Shown: positions 1,441 to 12,566 of the stretch, in pieces | How positions within the stretch are numbered: position 1 is the stretch's first letter | Layout: the number at the start of each line of letters is the position of its first letter | NCBI GenBank assembly: GCA_041938985.1 | Contig: JBGTUV010000001.1 | Span: 1-39,142, forward strand | Length of the DNA: 39,142 nt | Origin: Candidatus Nitromaritima sp. | Lineage (GTDB): Bacteria > Nitrospinota > Nitrospinia > Nitrospinales > VA-1 | Reading direction: 5' to 3' | Translations under genes and position numbers: made by a program | The notes under the pieces: generated by a model | What the model was told of the DNA's origin: nothing | Database searches by the model: none | The model's input: the letters and a program-made list of their open reading frames with translations, nothing else

Positions 1441-1884
1441 ATGATAAAAATATTAACTACAGGTGGCACAATTGAAGGTGTAGATTCTGCAAATAACGAC
1501 GGAATCAAAACATCGAACCTAACCGAAGATTTCTTTAAGTCAGCGAATGTTTCATTCTCTTATTCCTTTGAAAATGTCTTGAACAAAGATAGTCGCTCAA
1601 TAACAGATGAAGACCGTCAGCTTTTGGTTGATAAAATCAAGGCATCGAGCGCAGAAAAAATAATAGTAACCCACGGTACTTTCACAATGGAAGATACCGC
1701 AAAATATATCGGAAAATTAAACCTGAACAAAACAATTGTCTTAGTAGGTTCATTCATTTTGGGCACATCAAAGAATACTGACGCACCGTTTAATTTGGGT
1801 TATGCCGCATGCTCGGTTCAGTTTCTTAAACCAGGAGTGTATATCGCTATGAATGGAACAATCTTCAATTGGGGTGGCGAGTGA
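1441..1884 (+). CDS. Asparaginase-domain protein (short form); C-terminus possibly altered at a recombination junction
   Basis: N-terminal ILTTGGTIEG matches the asparaginase TGGT signature. The ORF ends exactly where the convergent ssb-like similarity stops. Confidence 0.6.
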   Translation: MIKILTTGGTIEGVDSANNDGIKTSNLTEDFFKSANVSFSYSFENVLNKDSRSITDEDRQLLVDKIKASSAEKIIVTHGTFTMEDTAKYIGKLNLNKTIVLVGSFILGTSKNTDAPFNLGYAACSVQFLKPGVYIAMNGTIFNWGGE

Positions 1885-1980
1885 AAAACGGGCTACTTTC
1901 TTTCCGCTTTCAAGGTTCGTAATGGTTGGTTCTTGTCCAACGTTTCCAATTAACTGTACGTGATTTTTAATAGTACTCAT
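1873..1980 (-). pseudogene. ssb: Truncated ssb (N-terminal roughly 36 codons of an ICE-type single-stranded DNA-binding protein)
   Basis: From the internal ATG at 1980 the translation MSTIKNHVQLIGNVGQEPTITNLESGKKVARFSLAT matches the start of an SSB OB-fold. After about 1873 the frame runs antisense through the asparaginase gene and loses all SSB character. Confidence 0.7.
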
Positions 1981-2040
1981 AATAAAAGATTTAAAGATTA
2001 ATATTTCCCTTTTCAATTCAACTGTGATTAAATTTTAAGG

Positions 2041-2698
2041 GGTGTTTGTTCTTTTCTTTCGTGCACCGCACAATGGATAGAGTGGGTTTTGTCAAGACTT
2101 TTAGGGTAAAATCAGGTGTGTTTGCGACGTAGTAAATTCCTTGGAATTTCAAGGAAGTAGAAACCTTATTTTTCAATAAAACTCAGTACAGTCTTGACAA
2201 GTTCCATAAGGGCATTAGCGATTCTTTTAAACGCGGTTGCGTTTGAGTGTACCGACAGTTAAGCGAAATAAGTGGCTGTGGTTAAATTAGAATTGGTTAT
2301 GTCGTGCCTGTTTTTCGACGCCCCGAAAAACAATAAAGGCTTTATCCATTATAAACCCCTTAAAATGTGTAAGACAGCGATTCGGTTTTTAAGGATTTTC
2401 GAAGAAGCACTCAAGAAGGGCTTACCGTAAATTCTGTTAAGAAAACCGAAGTGATGGCTTTCCGATGAAAGGCGGACTTAATTCACAATTTTGGCTCAGG
2501 AATGTAGTGTCCCTACCCAGCCTAAGCGGATAGGGTTAGCGGAATGGAAAGCTAAAATTATGGATTGTGTCCAAGATAGTTGTAGTGAAGCTCTTTTCCC
2601 AGAATGTAGCTTATCGCAAAATGAGGGAAATGTGCTGAGTGATTTTAGTAGTCGATTATCCCGTCCGTAACGTGCAAAAAAGTACGGACTTTTCTGTT
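2041..2698 (+). ncRNA. Candidate large structured non-coding element of unknown class (RNA, or an ssDNA promoter/ssi-type element)
   Basis: No ORF of 60 aa or more in any frame across 2017-3040. G+C is about 40% by hand count against about 27-33% in the flanks. Several perfect 7-11 bp helices are visible. The terminal hairpin plus T-run reads as a terminator only on the + strand. Confidence 0.35.
2663..2698 (+). terminator. Intrinsic-terminator-like hairpin
   Basis: GTCCGTA (2663-2669) pairs with TACGGAC (2683-2689) across a 13-nt loop, followed by TTTTCTGTT. Confidence 0.45.
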
Positions 2699-2781
2699 AA
2701 GGACAGAGCCTAAATTTTAAATTTTCTTGCTATCTCATTTTTAGAAACTAGACAAATTTAAAATTTGCAGTAGTTGCTACT

Positions 2782-2919
2782 TTATAAATGCTTTTTATTC
2801 AAGTACTTTTCAAACTCTGTATTATCTAAATCAGTATCTCTTTGATTGGTTTCGAAATTCCTGAGTTCATCATTACAACCATCAAATTTGGCTCTAATCT
2901 TTTTGATTTTTTCTTTCAT
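2782..2919 (-). CDS. Small ORF, 45 aa (MKEKIKKIRAKFDGCNDELRNFETNQRDTDLDNTEFEKYLNKKHL)
   Basis: ATG at 2919 and TAA at 2782-2784. It is below the ORF-track cutoff and there is no independent support. Confidence 0.25.
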   Translation of the reverse strand: MKEKIKKIRAKFDGCNDELRNFETNQRDTDLDNTEFEKYLNKKHL

Positions 2920-2993
2920 TTATAAAGGTATTTTCTACATTTTAATATGCAGATTTGAAAAAAGTATTCCACTATGCGAAAATCCTTTCGTAT

Positions 2994-3030
2994 AAAATTA
3001 AAAAGCCCGATTAGAATAAACCAATCGAGC
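2994..3030 (-). terminator. Intrinsic terminator downstream of the 50-aa ORF
   Basis: The minus-strand RNA GCUCGAUU...AAUCGGGC forms an 8-bp stem that needs one G-U pair, so it works only on this strand. It is followed by UUUUUAAUUUU. Confidence 0.55.
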
Positions 3031-3040
3031 AACTAATCAG

Positions 3041-3193
3041 TTATTTTCCTTTCGAACTACCTTTTGAACCTGAAGATGAATTTTTAGAACCTCCACCTGA
3101 TTTACTTGGTGCATTACTTCGTCCAGTTCCGGATGGCTTTCCAGTAGTTGATGGCCATCCGCCAGCATTTCCTTGTCCTTTACCTTTGCTCAT
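3041..3193 (-). CDS. Small basic Gly/Ser/Lys-rich protein, 50 aa
   Basis: ATG at 3193 and TAA at 3041-3043. The translation is MSKGKGQGNAGGWPSTTGKPSGTGRSNAPSKSGGGSKNSSSGSKGSSKGK, with 9 basic and 0 acidic residues. It has its own terminator and a TATATTTG box at 3277-3284 on the minus strand. Confidence 0.5.
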   Translation of the reverse strand: MSKGKGQGNAGGWPSTTGKPSGTGRSNAPSKSGGGSKNSSSGSKGSSKGK

Positions 3194-3320
3194 AATTTTT
3201 TATATATTTTAAAATTAATATTCATTTTTTCTGCATAATATTTGTTCAAATTACATCGAACTTGTTGTATCTGTACCAAATATAGTATTATCCCATCATC
3301 ATTGGTATGGAATTCTAATC

Positions 3321-4235
3321 TTAATTTTTATCTTCTTTTTTTGGCATCAGTTCTTCTATATCTGATAGTTCGTTTACGATTCCCTGCTCCTTTAATGAGT
3401 TTTCAATATTGATTTGAACAACATTGGCGTTGGCTTTCCAAACAACTTCCGTAATAAAGGCAATGGTAAGTTGTACTTTTAAATCGGTAGCAAAATCTAT
3501 ATTGGAATTTTTCCATTTGTCCCTATGTTTAGAATTAGCTTCTTGCGTTAAGTCGATTAAAGAGCCGTAGATTTTTCTATCTTCATCTAATATCCCAAGT
3601 TGGTGTTCTTTTTGTTCATCAATTTTAAGGTTCTTATGTTTTAGAATAGGCAAATCAGCTTTTGGTAAAACGAACAGTACATTTTTAAGTCCTGTAGATG
3701 GAATCCTAATAATTTTATCCTCAATTTTATTAAAGTCATCTATCCCATAGATATTTAGATTCATTGCTACAATCACATCTCTTTCTGCATCAAAACCTAA
3801 TCTTTCAATACCTCTGACCAAGTCATCTTTACGAAGAAGATACCTTTTTTTTCTGGCTGATAGAAATGCGTTAGGAATGTAATAATTAATGTTCTGGTAC
3901 ACTATCTGTTGGGATAATATAGTGTCCGCATTAAGATGCGGGATATCTCCGGATGTAAACGCAGATTTCTGAAACAGATTCATTGTACCATTTACACCGA
4001 AGGAAATAGTAGGTTGCCCATCAAAATTCTCGGCAGAATTCTGGATACTATCAAAATTTTCTAATGCTTTTATAATGGCATCTTTAGAATTGATTAGAAA
4101 ATCCGATTCTTTATCATAGTCAATATCTGCATTTAATCTTGCATCTTCAATAGCTTTTTCAATGGATGTTTCGAGAACATCTATAAATTTTGATGACTTG
4201 GCCTTTAGCTTCTTTATCTCTTTCTTCTTCTTCAT
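3321..4235 (-). CDS. Hypothetical protein, 304 aa, no recognisable motif
   Basis: Long ORF whose start lies 1 nt after the stop of the upstream gene. The N-terminus is Lys-rich. Confidence 0.8.
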   Translation of the reverse strand: MKKKKEIKKLKAKSSKFIDVLETSIEKAIEDARLNADIDYDKESDFLINSKDAIIKALENFDSIQNSAENFDGQPTISFGVNGTMNLFQKSAFTSGDIPHLNADTILSQQIVYQNINYYIPNAFLSARKKRYLLRKDDLVRGIERLGFDAERDVIVAMNLNIYGIDDFNKIEDKIIRIPSTGLKNVLFVLPKADLPILKHKNLKIDEQKEHQLGILDEDRKIYGSLIDLTQEANSKHRDKWKNSNIDFATDLKVQLTIAFITEVVWKANANVVQINIENSLKEQGIVNELSDIEELMPKKEDKN

Positions 4236-4236
4236 A

Positions 4237-5655
4237 TTATATTGTCTTTAAGAGATTTTTATCTTTCAACACTTTTTTCAAACAGAACCTGAAATAATTA
4301 ATGGATTCTTGCCAACGTAATAATTCCAATACCTCGGTCTGAGGTAAGGTAGGTTGCGCAGTGAAGTTATCGTAGGTATTATATTCCGTTAATTTATACT
4401 GCCTTAAAAAGAGCAGTGCTAGATATTGGCATATGTAAAAAGTAACGCGCCTTCTGTTCCCTAAATTATCTAATCCTGGGAAAGGATATGATAAATCAAT
4501 GGGATAATATCCTCTACCAAATTCATCCTTGAAACTACTAAACCAGGTAAAAATCTCTGTCATATTATTAGGTAACAGAACATATTTTGGTGGCTGATGC
4601 TGTGTATATGTAAACAGCGTTTTAATGGCTTCATAGTTTTTCTGATATATCAATAAACCACCTAATGCCAAGTGGAACTCAAAAAAACGTTTTCTTTCGT
4701 TATCCCTTTTATCTATTAATGACTGGTTATCGTATGTGTGGGTTTCAAAGTTATAGTTTGTTCCATACACGCGTTGTAATCCAAAACTAAAATATTGATG
4801 TGCCGTACCCCAATAGTTCCCCACAAATTTGGCATTGTTTGATATGAGTACAACATTTCGCCAAAGCTCTTTGTAGGTTTCGTTAGAGATTGGGGTTTCA
4901 AATATGCCTTGCCCCATCAGCCATATGCCACTTACAACAAAATATTCAAGACTTTGCAAGTCTTCATTTCTACCCTTAGCAACTTCCCTAATGATTTCCC
5001 TTATGCCATTGTGAAATTCGTGATTAAACTCAACTTTAAAGTTTTCAAATCCATCAGGTTTCTCTTCTTCTCTAGGCCTTATGAAGTTTGCACGGTAATT
5101 ATTAAATTCTTCTGTGTAGAACGTAACTAATGTTTCTTCCAGACCCTTATCCTGTGTTCTAATAGCGAATATTGCCAGTTCATTGATGATTTTGAAATAG
5201 AATTTGTCATCTTCATCTTTCTTCAACTTTCGGTATTTGGAAATAACATAGGTAAGCAAACGTGTAGACTTACCATTGTAGAGTGATACTTTATCTAACC
5301 AAATAATAAAAATCACAACCAATGCAATTGTTGAAAGCAATACTAAGATTCTAGCTGAGTTTTGCATCCACCAGTTACCCTTCCAAAAAAGAGGTTCGAG
5401 GTCTAATATTAGGAATATAAATGAGCCGATTGTAAGGAATAAAACCCACTCAAAAACTGTTATTCTTCTTGACCTTCCTGGTAGTATTCCAAGAAATTTG
5501 GTCTGCGGAAATTCACTTTCAAAAGCATTGGCCAAATAGTTTGATGAAAACTTATAACCAATATTGGATATTTTGTCTACGATAATAGGGTATGCTATAC
5601 CCAAAATTGCAATATCGATAGCGACACAAATTTCTATGATATATTTAAATTCCAT
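4237..5655 (-). CDS. Hypothetical membrane protein, 472 aa (N-terminal TM helices plus a roughly 330-aa soluble domain)
   Basis: Hydrophobic segments IIEICVAIDIAILGIAYPIIV, VFEWVLFLTIGSFIFLILDL and ILVLLSTIALVVIFIIWL. The gene is tightly packed behind the AbiE genes. Confidence 0.8.
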   Translation of the reverse strand: MEFKYIIEICVAIDIAILGIAYPIIVDKISNIGYKFSSNYLANAFESEFPQTKFLGILPGRSRRITVFEWVLFLTIGSFIFLILDLEPLFWKGNWWMQNSARILVLLSTIALVVIFIIWLDKVSLYNGKSTRLLTYVISKYRKLKKDEDDKFYFKIINELAIFAIRTQDKGLEETLVTFYTEEFNNYRANFIRPREEEKPDGFENFKVEFNHEFHNGIREIIREVAKGRNEDLQSLEYFVVSGIWLMGQGIFETPISNETYKELWRNVVLISNNAKFVGNYWGTAHQYFSFGLQRVYGTNYNFETHTYDNQSLIDKRDNERKRFFEFHLALGGLLIYQKNYEAIKTLFTYTQHQPPKYVLLPNNMTEIFTWFSSFKDEFGRGYYPIDLSYPFPGLDNLGNRRRVTFYICQYLALLFLRQYKLTEYNTYDNFTAQPTLPQTEVLELLRWQESINYFRFCLKKVLKDKNLLKTI

Positions 5656-5660
5656 TCACG

Positions 5661-6122
5661 TTAATTTACTAATAGTTCTACCGTCTTATACCAATAATAA
5701 AATATGGACTTATCCGGTTGTCGCTTTAATCTGTTCAAAAATGCCCAATCTGGATGTTTTATGGTCAGTTTGCCGGTATCCTGATTCTCATAATATTCTA
5801 TTTCAACTACTTCCTCTTGTAGCAGTATTGCATTCAAATAAGCGACTCTGGCTGATGCTGACAATGCTTCTTCAATTCTAAAATTTCCTGTCATCAAAAA
5901 CGCACTGCCAAAACTTCGTATGCCAGAACTTAAATCCGCAAATTTCTTTTTTGCTTCAGCAGTTGGATTGCGCTCTCGTCGTGCAATAATTGCACAGGTA
6001 TTTATAGAATCCCACAGCACATCTTTATCACTGAGATTCCTTTTACTAAAATTAGCATCCGAACTGCGATAAGATAGTTCTGCTTTCGCGAAAGCAGAAA
6101 AACTTTTTTTCACTGTGGCCAT
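5661..6122 (-). CDS. 153-aa ORF in the same frame as the AbiEii-like ORF (probable detached C-terminal part)
   Basis: Its ATG at 6122 lies exactly 216 codons after the ATG at 6770, so the two ORFs share a frame. Only TAA (6144-6146) and 7 sense codons separate them. Confidence 0.55.
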   Translation of the reverse strand: MATVKKSFSAFAKAELSYRSSDANFSKRNLSDKDVLWDSINTCAIIARRERNPTAEAKKKFADLSSGIRSFGSAFLMTGNFRIEEALSASARVAYLNAILLQEEVVEIEYYENQDTGKLTIKHPDWAFLNRLKRQPDKSIFYYWYKTVELLVN

Positions 6123-6143
6123 ATCCGTAATACTTTCAAATAG

Positions 6144-6770
6144 TTATGACAAGTCAAACAATTGTTTACAGATTTCCATTGCAAACAGCTGGTCTTGTTT
6201 ATAGTAGGGAATACCAATAGTTTCTGGTGCAAATGCAGTTAGCTTATCACCACAAATGGCATTAACCGATGGTGTCATTACAGTTGTTACTGTTCCATCA
6301 ACAGAGAGCCAAGGTGTTTCAATTGGTGATTCGATAATTTCTGGGTAGTGTGGACTATCAAAAAGAATGTCTAATAGAATAGTTCCTGGCACGTTTGGGT
6401 TATACACCGACTGAAACTCTAATGTGTAATGTGCCTTTGGCACACCTTCTTTATAGCTTCTACGTTCGTTCAATACGTGTTTTGTAAAATGTGAATTGGC
6501 TATTACCGTATCTAATATTGCCTCTAATTCTTTACGTTCGATACTCGAAATAATATCAATATCAATGGAAAAACGATTTCCCTCTTTCAACAAAAGCACA
6601 ACTGATGTACCACCTTTGAACACAAAATCAAGTCCAGCTAATTTTAAATGTTCCAACAGGGACAATGCGTGAACCATTTTTTCTAAAATAGTAACGTTAA
6701 TGGACTTATGTTCTTTTTTTAAACGAAAGTTATCCAGCCATTCCTTTGTAAAACTTTTTTTATCAATCAT
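6144..6770 (-). CDS. AbiEii/AbiGii-family nucleotidyltransferase toxin, N-terminal portion (208 aa)
   Basis: NTase motif FVFKGGTSVVLLLKEGNRFSIDIDI. It overlaps the upstream AbiEi-like gene by 8 nt and ends just after an LFDL motif. Confidence 0.75.
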   Translation of the reverse strand: MIDKKSFTKEWLDNFRLKKEHKSINVTILEKMVHALSLLEHLKLAGLDFVFKGGTSVVLLLKEGNRFSIDIDIISSIERKELEAILDTVIANSHFTKHVLNERRSYKEGVPKAHYTLEFQSVYNPNVPGTILLDILFDSPHYPEIIESPIETPWLSVDGTVTTVMTPSVNAICGDKLTAFAPETIGIPYYKQDQLFAMEICKQLFDLS

Positions 6771-7530
6771 ATGGTATATCTTCTAAGAAACCTGGAATGT
6801 AATTACTTATAAATTGTTTGATTTCCTGTTCTTTTTTACGTCGTTTTGCATAGCTGAACATCCTGGTAAAATTAATGCTGTACCTGTCTATGATATTTTC
6901 ATAGATATGTACCACTTCAGGACCTTGGTAAAAATGAAAGAGGTTTTCATCTGCAAATAGGTCAACCATTATCTTTTCTAGTGTGGCTATTGCTACAACG
7001 TCCTTCTTGTTTTTTGTTTTCTGAATGGGCGCCCTAGTCACCAAACGCTTAATAACAACTGGCACATTACTTTCTGAAATGTAAAACTGAATTTCCTTCT
7101 CATCTGGATTTAGGTAAAAATCCATTCTCAGATTATCATTGAGGTAATAATAGAGTGAGTCTATAAACTCTTTTTCTACCTCGACAATAATTATTTGATT
7201 GGAAGTTTGGTGTTGGGTAAACTCATTAAGCCATTGGGTTTCCCAGATTGCATATTTTATATCCTCAAAGCGCTCGTTGGTCTTGCGAGCGATTTTATAA
7301 ATATTATCTGACAGAAGGGCTTTATACTTAGGCTTATAGGAAATAACATATAGCCCACGTCCTATTGTTTTAATGATATCCTTTTTTTTAAGGTCATAGA
7401 TTCGCCAACCAAACGTATTCTCTTTGAGGTCTGGTTCAAAATCGAGATAAAAGTCATATAGTTCATTCCTATTGAATGAGCTACGGTCCTTAAAGGCTTC
7501 TATAAGTCTATTTTCTATAATTTTTGGCAT
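6763..7530 (-). CDS. AbiEi-like antitoxin / transcriptional regulator
   Basis: N-terminal winged-helix-like segment ...WRIYDLKKKDIIKTIGRGLYVIS. It sits immediately upstream of the NTase and overlaps it. Confidence 0.7.
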   Translation of the reverse strand: MPKIIENRLIEAFKDRSSFNRNELYDFYLDFEPDLKENTFGWRIYDLKKKDIIKTIGRGLYVISYKPKYKALLSDNIYKIARKTNERFEDIKYAIWETQWLNEFTQHQTSNQIIIVEVEKEFIDSLYYYLNDNLRMDFYLNPDEKEIQFYISESNVPVVIKRLVTRAPIQKTKNKKDVVAIATLEKIMVDLFADENLFHFYQGPEVVHIYENIIDRYSINFTRMFSYAKRRKKEQEIKQFISNYIPGFLEDIPYD

Positions 7531-7565
7531 AACTAAAAATCAAAACTTCGCCAAAAATACAAAAA

Positions 7566-7620
7566 AGTGGTAAATATTTGAAAACAAATTATTGCCACTA
7601 TCAAAATTAAGTGGTAAAAT
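7566..7620. promoter_or_regulatory. Candidate abiE operator: three AGTGG(T/C)AA boxes
   Basis: AAGTGGTAAATATTTGA at 7565-7581 and AAGTGGTAAAATTTTGA at 7609-7625 are direct copies. ATTGCCACT at 7591-7599 is an inverted copy. All lie in the 114-nt gap upstream of the AbiEi-like gene. Confidence 0.45.
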
Positions 7621-7644
7621 TTTGATTAATGGTTATCAACGTGA

Positions 7645-8400
7645 TTACTGCTTAAAGTTCAATATTGATAGAAATTCCAAAGATTTTGATTGTATTTTTT
7701 CAATAACAATCTTGTCTTTATCGGTCTCAAGCAATGCCCAGTATTTTTGTTCGTTCCAGATATGTTCTCGTTGTAAACCAGAACCAAATTGCGTGATAAA
7801 ACCCCAAAACCACAAATCATCCCAAATTTCCATCTGCTCAGATGAATAGCTTTGTTGTAAAACGGAATTGATGTTATCAAAATTCCATTTTTCTGATGAG
7901 TCAAGTTTATAAAAGATTGCTTCAATCACGGTATCTACAGGCAAAAAGAATTTTTTACTGGAATCTATCTTTTGTGGTGCATCATTCCAAATTCGTAATG
8001 ATTGGTCGTAACTACCACTATGAATGTGATAGATGGTCTTTGTAAACAATGCAGATGTTTTCTTTCCCCAGCCATCTTGTTTCAACATTGCATTAAACAG
8101 CAGTTCGTAATTACATTCTTCACACTCTTTTTCTGTGAGAAACTCAACAAAATTGCGAAAGCCTGTTAAGAGATGTTGGTTGGCATATATCTTTTGAAAA
8201 AAATCTGAGAGCCTGTTTATATTTGGTCTGCTTTGGGTATTTACGATATGATGTAGAAGGGAATATACTTTTTCTTGTGTACTGCTATATGACGACAAAA
8301 AACGGTAATATGATTTTGTCTGTACAGTATGGTTAAATTCACGGTTCTTTTCCAGGAATTTGAATAGGCTGTCTAATGATTTAGTTAAAGAGTGTTTCAA
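7645..8400 (-). CDS. HhH-GPD-superfamily-like protein (putative DNA glycosylase/lyase), 251 aa
   Basis: GWGKKTSALFTKTI followed by FLPVDTVIEAIF resembles the EndoIII GVGRKTANVV...AVDTHI pattern, with the Lys and Asp retained. The apparent start is TTG, and there is no in-frame ATG for about 100 codons. Confidence 0.5.
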   Translation of the reverse strand: MKHSLTKSLDSLFKFLEKNREFNHTVQTKSYYRFLSSYSSTQEKVYSLLHHIVNTQSRPNINRLSDFFQKIYANQHLLTGFRNFVEFLTEKECEECNYELLFNAMLKQDGWGKKTSALFTKTIYHIHSGSYDQSLRIWNDAPQKIDSSKKFFLPVDTVIEAIFYKLDSSEKWNFDNINSVLQQSYSSEQMEIWDDLWFWGFITQFGSGLQREHIWNEQKYWALLETDKDKIVIEKIQSKSLEFLSILNFKQ

Positions 8401-8402
8401 AC

Positions 8403-8864
8403 TTAGGGGTATGAATCAAGTTGAACAGTTCCATCGGCACTTACCCAGTAATGACTAATTCCTATTTTGTTTAGTTCTGGAATTATCCCTGCAATTGCAC
8501 TTCTAATTTGCTCGTCCTCTGGGTGGGCAATGGCTATTGTCGCTTCAGGATGTGCGACTTTGGTTTCGAGGCATTTAATTATAGCTTTTCCCAAATGTGA
8601 TTTAATTTGGCCTGAATTAAAAAATGGGCGTTTTTTAGTGGGTGAATCGTTATGCGCTTTCGCACCTTTTACTTCTACGAATAACTTCCTGTTATTTTTT
8701 ACCGCAACAATATCATAACCTCTGGTTTGTCCCAAGCAGAAACTTTCTATTGCATAGCCTTGTTGTACCAAAAAAGGCATCAATAATTCAATAGTTCTAT
8801 TTTCAGTAAGCTTTTCCACAACTATAGTCAATAATGTACAATATACTTTATTATTTGTTTTCAC
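8403..8864 (-). CDS. PD-(D/E)XK-type nuclease-like protein, 153 aa
   Basis: GYDIVAVKNNRKLFVEVKG fits the D...(E/D)xK core. The start is GTG. Its stop lies 2 nt before the next ORF's start codon. Confidence 0.55.
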   Translation of the reverse strand: MKTNNKVYCTLLTIVVEKLTENRTIELLMPFLVQQGYAIESFCLGQTRGYDIVAVKNNRKLFVEVKGAKAHNDSPTKKRPFFNSGQIKSHLGKAIIKCLETKVAHPEATIAIAHPEDEQIRSAIAGIIPELNKIGISHYWVSADGTVQLDSYP

Positions 8865-8880
8865 CTAAAAGTTGAAAATT

Positions 8881-8915
8881 AAAAAGAAAAAATCCAGTTT
8901 AGATAGGTACTGGAT
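8881..8915 (-). terminator. Intrinsic terminator after the DUF932 gene
   Basis: ATCCAGT (8892-8898) pairs with ACTGGAT (8909-8915). On the minus strand the hairpin is followed by TTTTTTCTTTTT. Confidence 0.6.
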
Positions 8916-8928
8916 AAACCTTTTAAAG

Positions 8929-9765
8929 CTATACCAGGGCATAGACTTCATCAAAGAGTTTCTTGTCCAACCGCTCTTGTTGGCCAAAGCTTTTCTTTAA
9001 CGTGTTGTGCAAAACTGCGTTGAAGGCGTTATAACCTAACCATAAATTCGGTTCTTCATTGAGCAATAAGGCTTCATAGTTTAGAATTTCTATGACTTCA
9101 CGCGACTTCTTCGATGGGTCGCTGTTCTTGTCGCTACATTCATAGCGGAACAGTTTGGTTCTGTCAAGAATCGCTTTTACAAATTCCTTGGTGTCGATGA
9201 TTTTAAATTCCTTCATCTTGTCAAATTTCTTTGTGATGGTATAGAACTCATTGTCAAGAAATTTATCGAAAAGATTGTTCAGCCTCGGCATTATAAGGTC
9301 TGTATTGTTTCTGCTGTGCTTAATCGAAAACTCGATTTCGGCCTGTGAAACGTGAAGTCCATTGGAACATACTTTTCGATAGAATCCAAAGTGGCCAGAG
9401 GTCTTTTCACTACCATCATACGAGTTCTTGAAACGAAGCATTGGTAGTATCAAATCCTCATCATTTTTGACCGTAAACTGACTTTTGTCGTCAATGATAA
9501 AGTCAGTAATAAACGACCTATCATTCTTATTGATGGTGCGTTTGTGGTAGTTGAGTCCGGCATCAGTCAACATTTCTTCTGCTTTCTTGAAGAACAGTTG
9601 GTTCGGGATGTGGCCGTAGCTGTTCGATACCACATTAACAATTTTTCCATTTGAAATGATGACGTTTTCAAGTCCACGTCGAGATTCCATCTGCGTTAAG
9701 GTTTTTAAAGATTTCATTTCTGATGGAACAAAAATTTCATCCTGTTGTAAATTTTGTAAATACAT
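8929..9765 (-). CDS. DUF932-family protein
   Basis: RFKNSYDGSEKTSGHFGFYRKVCSNGL matches the DUF932 core (NSxDGS...VCxNG). Confidence 0.8.
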   Translation of the reverse strand: MYLQNLQQDEIFVPSEMKSLKTLTQMESRRGLENVIISNGKIVNVVSNSYGHIPNQLFFKKAEEMLTDAGLNYHKRTINKNDRSFITDFIIDDKSQFTVKNDEDLILPMLRFKNSYDGSEKTSGHFGFYRKVCSNGLHVSQAEIEFSIKHSRNNTDLIMPRLNNLFDKFLDNEFYTITKKFDKMKEFKIIDTKEFVKAILDRTKLFRYECSDKNSDPSKKSREVIEILNYEALLLNEEPNLWLGYNAFNAVLHNTLKKSFGQQERLDKKLFDEVYALV

Positions 9766-9782
9766 AGCTTTTCAATTTTAGG

Positions 9783-9944
9783 TTAAACATTTTGTGATAG
9801 CACAGCGTAATACTCTGGATGCTTTTCTCTGTAGTAGGCCAGATGACTTTCGGCACCTTCAATCCTGTAATTTTCTTTACTGGATTGATAATGTGCCTCG
9901 GCTTCTTGCACTGAAATCTTCGCCTTTGTTGATACTTGTTTCAT
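9783..9944 (-). CDS. Small ORF, 53 aa (MKQVSTKAKISVQEAEAHYQSSKENYRIEGAESHLAYYREKHPEYYAVLSQNV)
   Basis: Its ATG sits at the same position relative to repeat R1 as the ParB-like ATG does relative to R2. It ends 17 nt upstream of the DUF932 gene. Confidence 0.45.
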   Translation of the reverse strand: MKQVSTKAKISVQEAEAHYQSSKENYRIEGAESHLAYYREKHPEYYAVLSQNV

Positions 9945-10097
9945 AATGTTGAAATTTTAGTTAAACAATATTTGAGCAGTACCCAAACGGAAGCTAAAAT
10001 CACAGCTCAAAAGGAAACGGAATAAATGAGAAATGGAATGCGCGCAAGGGCTTTATGCCGTAGTCTTTTGATGGGTGTATTTTACGAGTTTATCTTT
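9939..10097 (-). repeat. Leader/promoter repeat R1 (partner at 11981-12139)
   Basis: By-eye alignment is roughly 85% identical over about 155 nt, with one variable patch of about 20 nt. It contains hairpin 9971-9977/10005-10011 and two AAACGGAA boxes 30 bp apart (9985-9992 and 10015-10022). Confidence 0.85.
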
Positions 10098-10145
10098 GCG
10101 CTGATATTGATTGATACTTTTACTTTGAACCTCTATGATGTGGTC

Positions 10146-10180
10146 ATAAAAAGAAAAAGGGCCGACACGAATGCCGACCC
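10146..10180 (-). terminator. Intrinsic terminator after the ParB-like gene
   Basis: The minus-strand RNA GGGUCGGC AUUCGU GUCGGCCC needs G-U pairs, so it is strand specific. It is followed by UUUUUCUUUUU. Confidence 0.65.
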
Positions 10181-10198
10181 TTCTTCAAACAACAAAAG

Positions 10199-11986
10199 CT
10201 AATCGTTGAGTTCCTGAATTTTCTTCTCAAGAACTTCGATGCGCTCTTTCAAACGTGCTTCACGCTTGTCTCTTTTCTCAGAATATGCTTTCTCAATTTC
10301 AGCAATCTTCGACTTGTAATATCCTTGTATTGCATTATAGAATGATATATTCGTTAGATTGTTGACGTGGTTGCTCTCGCCAAAATGGACTTGTCTCGTG
10401 AGGATATAGCGAATCAATTTGTGGAAGACTTCCTTTTTGAACTTCTTCTTGAAATTCTCGACCATTTCAACTTTGGTCATTTTGGACGTGTCGCCCAAGA
10501 ACTTTGAGAAATACTTTTGCTGGCTCACATAATCCACATTATTTTCAAAAAGCGATATCGAGAATGCCACCATTTCGTCTGTGGAAAGTGTCTTCTTCGT
10601 ATCGATGTAATTGGTCTCACGAATCATCTGGACAACTTCTTCAAACTGCTTGTTGTTCTCGATGTGCTTCTTGCGGATTTCCCTTTCGTTGATTTTCACG
10701 ATTTGTTCTTCAGGTGTACAATCTGCCATTTTTCTATTGGCCAATGGTGCTGAATATTCAGTTGATTCGTTTTCTGATTTCTCAATCACTTTTACGAAGG
10801 CACTTTTGTGCTGGTATGTTTCAGGATGGAAGACGATACCGTTTACAAAACCATTATCCTTTGCAGAATTATACGTTTTCAATGCTTGTTCGTAATCCTG
10901 CATCGCTTCATCCAATTCCGCCTTTAATTCATCTTCTGAATAATCGTAATGCTGATATTCAATCTTAATGGCTTCGATTGTAGGTTCGATTGGATTTTCG
11001 ATAATTTCAACATCATCTAGTAGATACACTTTAAATCCATTTTTTTCCAGTTGGGAAATAATAAGCTGATTGCTTTCTTCGTCTGCCCAATACCGGCGAA
11101 TTTCAGGAAATAAAAGAATGTTCTCTTTTTTGGTTTTCTCAATCAAGTTCAAGAACGATTTGGATTTCTTTGTCTCAAAACAAGCCGATTTAGTGCAAAC
11201 CATTTTACCTTCGCCAAAAAGATTCCCTTGATTCGCAGCATTAAATGGACATTCTACACACGAACCCGCTTTTGGCACCAAAGTCTTATCTGCAACATCA
11301 AAGGATGCTTTTTCTAAATCATAGGATTGGTCTTTAATCATCCTGTTTATTTGATGCGCATTAAAAGTTTCACCCATTGTTTCCAGCATCATCTTTTGTT
11401 CCTCTGGTGTAAAGAGCGCAACACTGACACCTAAGGAAATGGTCATTTCGCCATTGCGTACAAAATGTTTGAACCCGTCAATCAATCCAGCCAACTTCAA
11501 ACGTTGTCTTATGAAATTGTCCGTTCTTCCCAGGCGTTTAGAGATTTCAGAGGGTTGATACTTGTCACTCAGATAAGCTATCGCTTCGGCTTCTTCGGTA
11601 GGCTCTACGTCCTTTCGTTGCAGATTTTCGATGATTTGAACTTCAAGCACTTCGTCGTTTTCATAAGTTCTTACGATACTGGGAATCGTTTTCTTGTTCG
11701 CTATTTTGCTTGCGCGAAACCGTCTTTCACCCATTACGATGATAAAGTCCTTTCCAGATTTGCGAACCGTTATTGGTTGCAATACCCCAAATTCCTTGAT
11801 GCTATCCGAAAGCTGTTGTAGCTGCTTATCATCAAAGGTCTTTCTCGGTTGCTTAGGGTCAGGCTTGATTTTGCCAATGGGAATGTTCTCAATTTGAAGT
11901 GCCGGAACTTTCTTTCCGTTCAATTCTTTCTTCGCAGTAGTCGTTGTACTTCTACGCTTTCTTGTGGTACTCGCTTTTGTTGTCAT
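10199..11986 (-). CDS. ParB/Spo0J-like N-terminal domain protein with a long C-terminal extension (ICE-type)
   Basis: IPIGKIKPDPKQPRK...VLQPITV...VMGERRFRASKIA is a ParB N-terminal domain with the GERR box. A Cys cluster GSCVECPF...CTKSACF follows. The likely ATG is at 11986; the ORF-track start at 11995 is TTG. Confidence 0.85.
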   Translation of the reverse strand: MTTKASTTRKRRSTTTTAKKELNGKKVPALQIENIPIGKIKPDPKQPRKTFDDKQLQQLSDSIKEFGVLQPITVRKSGKDFIIVMGERRFRASKIANKKTIPSIVRTYENDEVLEVQIIENLQRKDVEPTEEAEAIAYLSDKYQPSEISKRLGRTDNFIRQRLKLAGLIDGFKHFVRNGEMTISLGVSVALFTPEEQKMMLETMGETFNAHQINRMIKDQSYDLEKASFDVADKTLVPKAGSCVECPFNAANQGNLFGEGKMVCTKSACFETKKSKSFLNLIEKTKKENILLFPEIRRYWADEESNQLIISQLEKNGFKVYLLDDVEIIENPIEPTIEAIKIEYQHYDYSEDELKAELDEAMQDYEQALKTYNSAKDNGFVNGIVFHPETYQHKSAFVKVIEKSENESTEYSAPLANRKMADCTPEEQIVKINEREIRKKHIENNKQFEEVVQMIRETNYIDTKKTLSTDEMVAFSISLFENNVDYVSQQKYFSKFLGDTSKMTKVEMVENFKKKFKKEVFHKLIRYILTRQVHFGESNHVNNLTNISFYNAIQGYYKSKIAEIEKAYSEKRDKREARLKERIEVLEKKIQELND

Positions 11987-12139
11987 AATACTCAAATTTT
12001 AGATTAAACAATATTTGAGCAGTGAACCAAACGGAAGATAAAATCTTGGCTCAAAAGGAAACGGAATAAATGAGTAGGGGCAGAAGCGATGGCTTTATGC
12101 CGTAGTCTTTTGATGGAAGTATTTTACGAGTTTAACTTT
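11981..12139 (-). repeat. Leader/promoter repeat R2 (partner at 9939-10097)
   Basis: Same architecture as R1. AAACGGAA boxes lie at 12029-12036 and 12059-12066, again 30 bp apart. Confidence 0.85.
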
Positions 12140-12402
12140 CGGGAATATTGTATGATAAAAAACTTCTTACCAATGCTTTTAATTTTAATACATATCTCTA
12201 GAGGAAGCAGAAGTCTGAGGTAAGATTTTGTCCCATATTCATACTTTTTTTGGGATAAAAGCAAAGTACTTTAAAACTGTAATTCCTTGAGTGGAATGAT
12301 AAAAATCACTAGACTTTTCTAAAGAAAAGACTTTTTCATTGCAATTAATATCTAAAAATCACAAATGATGTCATTTCTTATTAGCATCCAAAAAAAGACA
12401 AA

Positions 12403-12424
12403 ATGTTGTACCTATGTTGTACCT
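12403..12424. repeat. Perfect tandem 11-mer ATGTTGTACCT x2
   Basis: The copies at 12403-12413 and 12414-12424 are identical. They lie about 60 nt from the tRNA 3' end. Confidence 0.6.
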
Positions 12425-12451
12425 GTCCATTTTTTCGCTTAGTTTTTTCAA

Positions 12452-12480
12452 TAAAAAAAGCCGAAGATAAATCTTCGGCT
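12452..12480 (-). terminator. Intrinsic terminator of tRNA-Leu
   Basis: AGCCGAAGA (12459-12467) pairs with TCTTCGGCT (12472-12480). On the minus strand the hairpin is followed by a U-run. Confidence 0.7.
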
Positions 12481-12484
12481 TTTG

Positions 12485-12566
12485 TGCGGGTGAAGGGACT
12501 CGAACCCCCACACCTTGCGGCATCAGATCCTAAGTCTGACGTGTCTACCAATTCCACCACACCCGC
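12485..12566 (-). tRNA. tRNA-Leu (anticodon UAG)
   Basis: The reverse complement GCGGGTG..TCAGA CTTAGGA TCTGA..TTCGAGT..CACCCGCA folds as a cloverleaf. It has a 7-bp acceptor stem, a long variable arm and anticodon TAG, and is 82 nt long. Confidence 0.85.

Follow-up and report, generated by a model that had tools for sequence, protein, structure and literature searches.

What is the role of a long, conserved and folded stretch of non-coding DNA that stands directly upstream of ssb, the gene for a protein that binds single-stranded DNA, in a conjugative element? The question is raised by the first 39,142 nucleotides (nt) of contig JBGTUV010000001.1 (assembly GCA_041938985.1, Candidatus Nitromaritima sp.), referred to here as the window, which near its start contains the remnant of an integrative and conjugative element (ICE). 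Beside the surviving fragment of ssb lies an element of about 670 nt that is shown below to be non-coding, under purifying selection and endowed with a covariation-supported secondary structure, with folding of the + strand favoured. We propose, with about as much confidence as doubt, that this element acts in cis as folded single-stranded DNA (ssDNA) of the transferred strand, serving early transcription and/or priming in a Flavobacteriaceae ICE.

1981-2650, + strand (the folding strand, which is the template strand of ssb): conserved non-coding structured element, ~670 nt, with a sharp distal edge

The original prediction, made from the letters of the window alone, had singled out the interval 2017-3040 as free of open reading frames (ORFs) of 60 amino acids (aa) or more, and this is correct: the longest ORFs there encode 59 aa (2491-2670, + strand) and then 52 aa. 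Pfam searches with six-frame translations of the region returned no match even at E <= 1. A small ORF is present in many related loci and absent from some, and its frame switches between loci while the nucleotides stay conserved (MELVKT... in some and MPLWNL... in others; ...FTLKVLTKPTLSIV... vs ...LFPKSLDKTHSIHC...), which argues that selection acts on the nucleotides. A decayed gene, at first suggested by an apparently conserved ORF in the ssb-proximal part of the element (region B, below), was ruled out by the null Pfam result together with this frame switching, in keeping with the earlier view of the region.

Relatives were found by scanning one genome per species with the intact SSB, which gave at least 475, and the best 80 loci were taken for comparison. 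These belong to many genera of Flavobacteriaceae and a few other Bacteroidota bins, and intact copies of the element are present in cultured strains, candidate carriers of an intact ICE including Maribacter sp. IgM3_T14_3, Lacinutrix neustonica HL-RS19, Tenacibaculum holothuriorum S2-2 and Cellulophaga baltica B2M06. The host ICE is widespread among marine members of the Flavobacteriaceae. In nearly all of the best 80 loci, the ~660 nt up to the ssb start codon are 79-92% identical to window positions 1981-2650. Conservation per column, taken as the major-allele fraction over 68 distinct sequences, was as follows:

Positions -670 to -1 from the ssb start: 0.86-0.97
Positions beyond -690: 0.3-0.45
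First and second codon positions of ssb: 0.96
Third codon positions of ssb: 0.79

The element is more conserved than the third codon positions of the gene that it precedes, and conservation breaks off sharply at about -670. The conserved block thus runs from 1981 to ~2650 rather than from 2041 to 2698, as first delimited. The G+C enrichment noted over the latter interval exists against the AT-rich spacer (40.3% at 2041-2698 vs 26.2% in the next 122 nt, 2699-2820) and, by about 5 points, against the surrounding ICE remnant (35.3%), the mean of the whole window being equally about 40% (39.6%). The + strand is rich in G and T (A 202, C 104, G 152 and T 212 over 1981-2650).

The region folds better than its shuffled counterparts, in line with the helix-rich element predicted: folded as a single sequence with RNA parameters, the + strand reaches -191 kcal/mol (z = -3.45) and the - strand -152 kcal/mol (z = -3.81). 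Consensus folding was carried out with RNAalifold on both strands after removal of gappy columns; with these columns kept, the ssb-sense alignment yielded zero pairs, and the structure emerged after their removal. The consensus energy of the full element is -353 kcal/mol on the + strand vs -272 kcal/mol on the ssb-sense strand, and the alignment cells in predicted pairs comprise 11,865 Watson-Crick, 1,510 G·T and 116 A·C combinations, which bears out the earlier choice of the + strand as the one that folds. The difference in energy and the abundance of G and T on the + strand should be taken as one property seen in two ways. Compensatory changes on both sides occur in 67 of the 212 consensus pairs. 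The predicted fold consists of six hairpins, with two possible long-range closing helices:

2082-2207, + strand: HP1, a long imperfect hairpin with 45 consensus pairs, 9 of them changed on both sides, mostly apical; includes the 2089-2099/2190-2200 arms and, at its apex, the hairpin near 2137-2156
2209-2305, + strand: HP2, 34 pairs in the consensus, every one of which forms in the window; 13 changed on both sides
2306-2340, + strand: HP3, 12 consensus pairs, 2 changed on both sides; includes the GTTTTTCG/CGAAAAAC helix
2367-2463, + strand: HP4, 35 consensus pairs, 12 changed on both sides
2474-2572, + strand: SL2, covariation-supported hairpin of the repeated module
2589-2636, + strand: SL1, covariation-supported hairpin of the repeated module
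2032-2049/2351-2366 and 2072-2081/2341-2350, + strand: possible long-range closing helices, predicted only, from the consensus fold

As the closing helices are invariant at every pair, covariation speaks neither for nor against them. Four of the helices originally read by eye recur in the consensus (2089-2099/2190-2200, 2137-2143/2150-2156, 2310-2317/2324-2331 and 2511-2515/2531-2535), with compensatory changes in or beside them that are clearest in the 2137/2150 and 2511/2531 hairpins. A fifth, 2358-2365/2387-2394, is absent from the consensus and competes with the closing helices, in which 2351-2366 pairs with 2032-2049.

The distal part of the element, formed by SL2 and SL1, is a module that recurs elsewhere in these ICEs.

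2469-2642, + strand: core of the repeated module (hairpins SL2 + SL1), ~175-200 nt, with four GGAATG motifs in internal loops

The strength of its covariation was measured on 55 diverse copies in + orientation against 500 shuffles:

Cells forming a standard pair: 92.0% observed vs 85.6% shuffled; the observed value reached in 0 of 500 shuffles
Pairs changed on both sides: 24 observed vs 16.5±1.9 shuffled; reached in 0 of 500
Cells changed on both sides: 140 observed vs 46.8±5.2 shuffled; reached in 0 of 500

When the 3' partners were slid as a control, 34-51% of cells paired. The two-hairpin fold of the module is the same on both strands, with a consensus energy of -73 kcal/mol on the window + strand vs -40 kcal/mol on the ssb-sense strand. 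For region B, the remainder of the element (1981 to ~2465), our own version of the test gave 37 pairs changed on both sides vs 15.1±2.2 (0 of 300 shuffles), with 1017 G·T vs 64 A·C cells.

A profile search with nhmmer recovered 140 module copies in 96 loci, from one to four per locus and all oriented as ssb is, some of them arranged in tandem with a period of ~215-225 nt. Exact matches of a 20-base module pattern number at least 120 in metagenome contigs; among 80 metagenome loci that were fetched, 77 carry 127 modules, on a single strand within each locus, and 41 also have region B. Orientation is uniform in all 77 of these loci and in every module-bearing ssb-anchored genome locus, the 140 and the 127 copies all being oriented as the genes are, and in the ssb-anchored genome loci every copy lies on the side of ssb away from the mobilization (mob) genes. 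The extra copies are found 54-225 nt upstream of varied cargo genes, which encode an AraC/glyoxalase regulator, a methyltransferase, NOV_C-like, DUF1905 and DUF6577 proteins, and a conserved protein of 53-64 aa (MK..SE..ISLQEAEEHY..SSENY...YYRDKHPLYY) that is frequently found after a module. Repeated units of module and cargo gene stand upstream of ssb in several intact ICEs (loci L042, 2766-5529; L053, 3112-5548; L059 and L091, 2700-5530), which suggests that the module marks, or perhaps promotes, a zone of cargo insertion. The four GGAATG motifs are nearly invariant in all module copies and fall in the internal loops of the hairpins (2502-2545 and 2604-2632); a pair of them lie opposite one another in SL2, where A-U/U-A pairing flanked by G·A could form. 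This arrangement resembles self-pairing (GGAAT)n DNA, and the loops may form G·A/A·T 'zippers'.

Region B occurs once per element and stands next to ssb in every case, and the window holds one module only, even at E <= 50. A derivation of region B from diverged module copies was ruled out, since it is single-copy and the module hidden Markov model (HMM) finds one copy. In more distant ICEs (ssb 68-80% identical), the module is followed by a different spacer of ~390 nt and then by ssb; these spacers also favour folding of the template strand (-112 to -125 vs -84 to -87 kcal/mol). In the divergent relatives L089, L094, L095, L086, L120, L159 and L173, the ~390-nt spacer contains a short ORF (MKSYK...) whose frame is not conserved. 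Partial module matches of ~100 nt occur beside opposite-strand ORFs in L105, L110, L115, L127 and L158, and may be remnants or a separate subfamily. An identity of the module as an analogue of the attC sites of integron-like cassettes, suggested by the repetition of module-gene units, was set aside on account of tandem copies without intervening genes (an integron integrase was not looked for). An origin of transfer (oriT) or a parS site was judged unlikely, the module being repeated, separated from the mob genes by over 1 kb and covarying on a single strand.

The copy of the element in the window sits in a damaged ICE, as is evident from metagenome contigs that carry exactly the same proteins and come in two states, deleted (100% identical to the window) or with an intact ICE; window positions ~1884-12483 accordingly hold an ICE remnant. 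Its end is formed by two broken genes:

1884-1980, - strand: 5' fragment of ssb, ~33 codons; the Pfam SSB match covers residues 18-49 only
1441-1884, + strand: truncated asparaginase gene, 147 aa, with a Pfam match to the N-terminal part only

The fusion of the two at ~1884, found identically in many TARA metagenome contigs, marks the end of the ICE remnant and is the scar of a deletion by which the half with the mob and tra genes was removed. In the intact state (L008 and L015, 97-98% identical), the region directly precedes a full ssb gene of 114 aa, so that the 'truncated ssb' of the original prediction describes the window and not the intact relatives. The intact ssb is followed by genes for RadC or DUF6876, a DUF5712 protein, a methylase and the coupling protein (T4CP) of a type IV secretion system, and is transcribed in the direction of the DUF5712/T4CP mob genes, which lie at a distance of 1.4-2.9 kb. 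Past the opposite end of the element, the - strand carries ORFs of 45 and 50 aa and genes for proteins of 304 and 472 aa, AbiEii/DUF6577, DUF932 and a ParB-like protein of 598 aa, beyond which lies a tRNA-Leu gene (12484-12566). The host ICE in the window is thus a deleted remnant that has lost the 3' part of ssb along with the mob and tra genes, and for this reason the copy of the element in the window is probably a non-functional relic of a functional family. The remnant shows further peculiarities. The AbiEii toxin gene (5661-6770, - strand) is split into ORFs of 153 and 208 aa; it is probably a pseudogene in this genome, since the near-identical contigs L001 and L007 carry a single unbroken gene of 369 aa. 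The 50-aa ORF (3041-3193, - strand), rich in Gly, Ser and Lys (MSKGKGQGNAGGWPSTTGKPSG...), has no family match, its exact sequence is found in 242 blocks of a public collection, and it is followed by a terminator-like hairpin at 3005-3030 (- strand).

Whether transcription signals accompany the structure bears on whether it is made as RNA. The original prediction had read a terminal hairpin at 2663-2689 as a terminator.

2663-2697, + strand: hairpin followed by a T run (the 'terminator'), outside the conserved block; hairpin at 2671-2686

Terminator-like hairpins follow 2 of 104 distinct module flanks, both inside a neighbouring module, against a background of 7.5%, which rules out a 3' terminator as a family feature. 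Neither strand of the element shows conservation of the canonical -7 box of Bacteroidetes, TAnnTTTG. Beside the modules, toward the gene, this box turns up in 4 of 98 flanks in the antisense direction and in 2 of 98 in the sense direction (background ~5%); antisense, within 1 kb upstream, any such motif is present in 26 of 66 loci at positions that are not conserved; and there is no match on the + strand of the window between 1 and 3180. The ssb-sense strand carries a -7-like box (TAAATTTG) at 2753-2760, beyond the conserved block, and matches to the -7 box across the window are at chance frequency (43 found vs 47 expected). Bacteroidetes or sigma-70 promoter motifs in the 3' arms of the hairpins, looked for by eye and by pattern, amounted to 5-of-6 near-matches that are not conserved, and isolated TTGACA hexamers in the element are without a correctly spaced partner. 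Canonical promoters and terminators are therefore not conserved with the structure on either strand; non-canonical signals are possible.

How might such an element work? The original prediction preferred a discrete + strand RNA with its own terminator, and offered as an alternative an ssDNA element of the Frpo/ssi kind. The preferred version found no support, as the terminator is particular to the window, no + strand promoter is conserved, and the module is always upstream in gene orientation. The alternative fares better in position, repetition, orientation and folding strand, which together make an ssDNA element the better fit; its weak sides are that no promoter is rebuilt in the hairpins and that homology to the Frpo of plasmid F is absent. 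A role at the DNA level is favoured by the placement of modules upstream of genes in the orientation of those genes, by the folding of the template strand and by a layout that parallels that of F. In the mechanism that we envisage, the ICE would be nicked at an oriT beside the mob genes, and the first strand to enter the recipient would be the template strand of ssb and the neighbouring early genes. On this entering strand, the element would fold into its six hairpins just upstream of ssb, as would the extra ~190-nt modules upstream of cargo genes. The folded DNA could then recruit RNA polymerase or primase, leading to transcription of early genes and/or priming of the complementary strand before the DNA becomes double-stranded. 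The proposed role is the same as that of Frpo/ssi in F-like plasmids and of single-strand origins (sso) in rolling-circle plasmids and ICEBs1; by analogy, the element would work like members of this kind, yet it is not one of them by sequence.

Several results weigh against this proposal. No sigma-70 (-35/-10) or Bacteroidetes (-33 TTTG/-7 TAnnTTTG) promoter pair is rebuilt in any hairpin. Blastn of the region against 72,556 plasmids and 50,697 phages found no match, and comparisons with the F leading region by blastn and nhmmer stayed at E ~1 or worse, so that there is no sequence homology to Frpo. The architecture also differs, with six medium hairpins at -92 kcal/mol over 670 nt vs a single hairpin of ~330 nt in F, where the figure is -119 kcal/mol over 479 nt (DNA parameters in both cases). 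Single copies fold with slightly better z-scores under RNA than under DNA parameters (-2.8 vs -2.2), a difference that does not clearly discriminate between the two molecules, and G·T combinations, ordinary in RNA but costly in DNA, make up ~11% of paired cells. Finally, that the template strand of ssb is the transferred one is a presumption drawn from the position of the relaxase-like DUF5712 gene (relaxase genes usually enter last) and from the analogy with F. We infer, too, that it is DNA, and not RNA, which folds and that it acts by recruitment. A tentative but by no means negligible possibility is that the element does not imitate a promoter in any way and represents either a new modular RNA of ~650 nt borne by Flavobacteriaceae ICEs or a new kind of ssDNA signal in which the conserved GGAATG internal loops, in place of a rebuilt promoter, are read by a protein of the ICE or the host, for example a primase.

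The rival explanations differ mainly in the molecule that carries the function. It seems rather unlikely to us that the window + strand specifies a large structured RNA, 650 nt or longer, or several modular RNAs, antisense to ssb and to the leaders of the cargo genes and acting either as a novel RNA of the ICE comparable to ROOL and GOLLD or as an antisense repressor that silences early genes in the resident state. The folding of the + strand, with about 11% of pairs of the G·U type, the significant covariation, and energies and z-scores that are slightly better with RNA than with DNA parameters all agree with this explanation, as do the predicted multi-hairpin and possibly multi-branched architecture with invariant internal-loop motifs, which is reminiscent of large RNAs, and the terminator-like hairpin that the window copy does possess on the + strand (2671-2686). 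Against it, a terminator is absent from 102 of the 104 homologous flanks, and no canonical + strand promoter is conserved in the element, beside the modules or in the 1 kb upstream. GNRA and UNCG tetraloops are missing from all six hairpins, as read from the consensus. Nor does the element belong to a known RNA class, in line with the original prediction: a scan of the window with Rfam 15 at gathering thresholds returned the tRNA-Leu only, and a permissive scan of 1800-3300 had as its best hit JA01 (E 0.2), outside the element, with RAGATH-32 at 13.5 bits. The constant upstream and antisense placement is also without obvious reason for an independent RNA gene.

More improbable is a function in duplex DNA, as promoters or operators, or as a long sense 5' leader of ssb and the cargo genes, the module having been duplicated together with gene cassettes. 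The position upstream of genes, in gene orientation, would suit such a region; the -7-like box at 2753-2760 would place the whole element within a leader, and CATTCC is repeated on the sense strand, with two copies 10 nt apart. Promoters and operators, however, yield no compensatory changes in stems of 35-45 bp, the sense strand, on which wobbles become C·A mismatches, folds clearly worse, and the box at 2753 falls beyond the conserved block and is no commoner than chance predicts, no canonical promoter being conserved inside the element. Least credible, and to our minds very improbable indeed, is an origin as a decayed gene or as a selfish palindromic repeat with no ICE function, of the type of miniature inverted-repeat transposable elements (MITEs) or repetitive extragenic palindromic (REP) sequences. 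The module is indeed repeated, hairpin-forming and sometimes tandem, and the host ICE in the window is itself a dead remnant; yet no frame shows protein similarity, and conservation across many genera exceeds that of synonymous sites. The dispersion in both orientations that marks MITE- and REP-like repeats was not seen: orientation is uniform in the 77 metagenome loci and every module-bearing ssb-anchored genome locus, the 39-kb window holds a single copy even at relaxed threshold, and region B is present once, always beside ssb.

The proposal of a folded ssDNA element would, if correct, have implications beyond this locus. To our knowledge, the conversion of transferred ICE ssDNA to duplex and its early expression are understood in very few systems, namely F-like plasmids and ICEBs1, and no description exists for Bacteroidota, in which promoters depart from the sigma-70 code mimicked by Frpo. 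The element constitutes a concrete, widespread and testable candidate, with SSB relatives in at least 475 places and at least 120 exact metagenome matches to the module pattern. Were it to act as DNA, it would carry the principle of ssDNA promoters and origins into a further phylum, where recognition follows another logic, and would serve in addition as a marker of the leading region and of the zone of cargo insertion in these ICEs. A new ssDNA signal built on GGAATG loops would be the first establishment signal described for conjugative elements of Bacteroidota, and an element acting as RNA would represent a new large structured RNA family.

The candidate shares features with several known classes of folded elements. 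Like the large RNAs ROOL, GOLLD, HEARO/omega RNA and OLE, it is a mobile-element-borne, covariation-backed array of hairpins of similar size (~650 nt); unlike them, it has no covariance-model match and is built from a repeated module upstream of genes. FinP, which acts on the traJ leader, is an antisense regulator of conjugation genes of less than 100 nt with its own promoter and terminator, whereas neither signal is conserved in the present element; as an RNA, the latter would likewise be structured and antisense to the leader of genes for transfer or establishment. Closer parallels are found among the sso elements, which are active only when single-stranded. The sso1 of ICEBs1 is a single-strand origin of ~200 bp with three stem-loops that functions in one orientation (PMC4595007). 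It resembles the module, with its two hairpins in ~175-200 nt, in being intergenic, orientation-specific, composed of several stem-loops and ICE-borne, and differs from it in being single-copy and located just downstream of the relaxase gene, the module being multicopy and on the ssb side. No sequence similarity to the sso family emerged from the general plasmid blastn, in which the sso motifs RSB and CS-6 were not specifically searched.

The comparison with the F leading region is the most instructive. The Frpo and ssi elements of the leading regions of F-like and IncI plasmids are single-stranded-DNA promoters (Masai and Arai 1997; Samuel et al. 2024). In plasmid F (L097), genes for a methylase, an antirestriction protein, SSB, a ParB-like protein, PsiB and a DUF932 protein are all oriented toward oriT. 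Directly upstream of ssb is a non-coding region of 479 nt (58164-58642), a second copy of which, 89% identical, lies 5 kb further on (63552-64011), upstream of the gene preceding that for the DUF932 protein; the region contains a near-perfect hairpin of ~330 nt and folds as a whole at -119 kcal/mol. Frpo elements consist of hairpins that mimic duplex promoters and stand upstream of leading-region genes, including immediately upstream of that for SSB (PMC11541004), with about two per element and the genes concerned encoded on the T-strand (Samuel et al. 2024, PMC11541004). In the present case, no promoter is rebuilt in a stem and conserved GGAATG internal loops are found instead, the carrier is an ICE and not a plasmid, and promoters in Bacteroidota, the phylum of the hosts, follow another code. 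In both systems, nevertheless, a non-coding element of a few hundred nucleotides stands directly upstream of ssb, further homologous copies precede other early genes in one orientation (two copies in F, one to four per locus here), and folding favours the template strand, all within a shared set of ssb, ParB-like, DUF932 and methylase genes that are transcribed toward the mob/oriT side.

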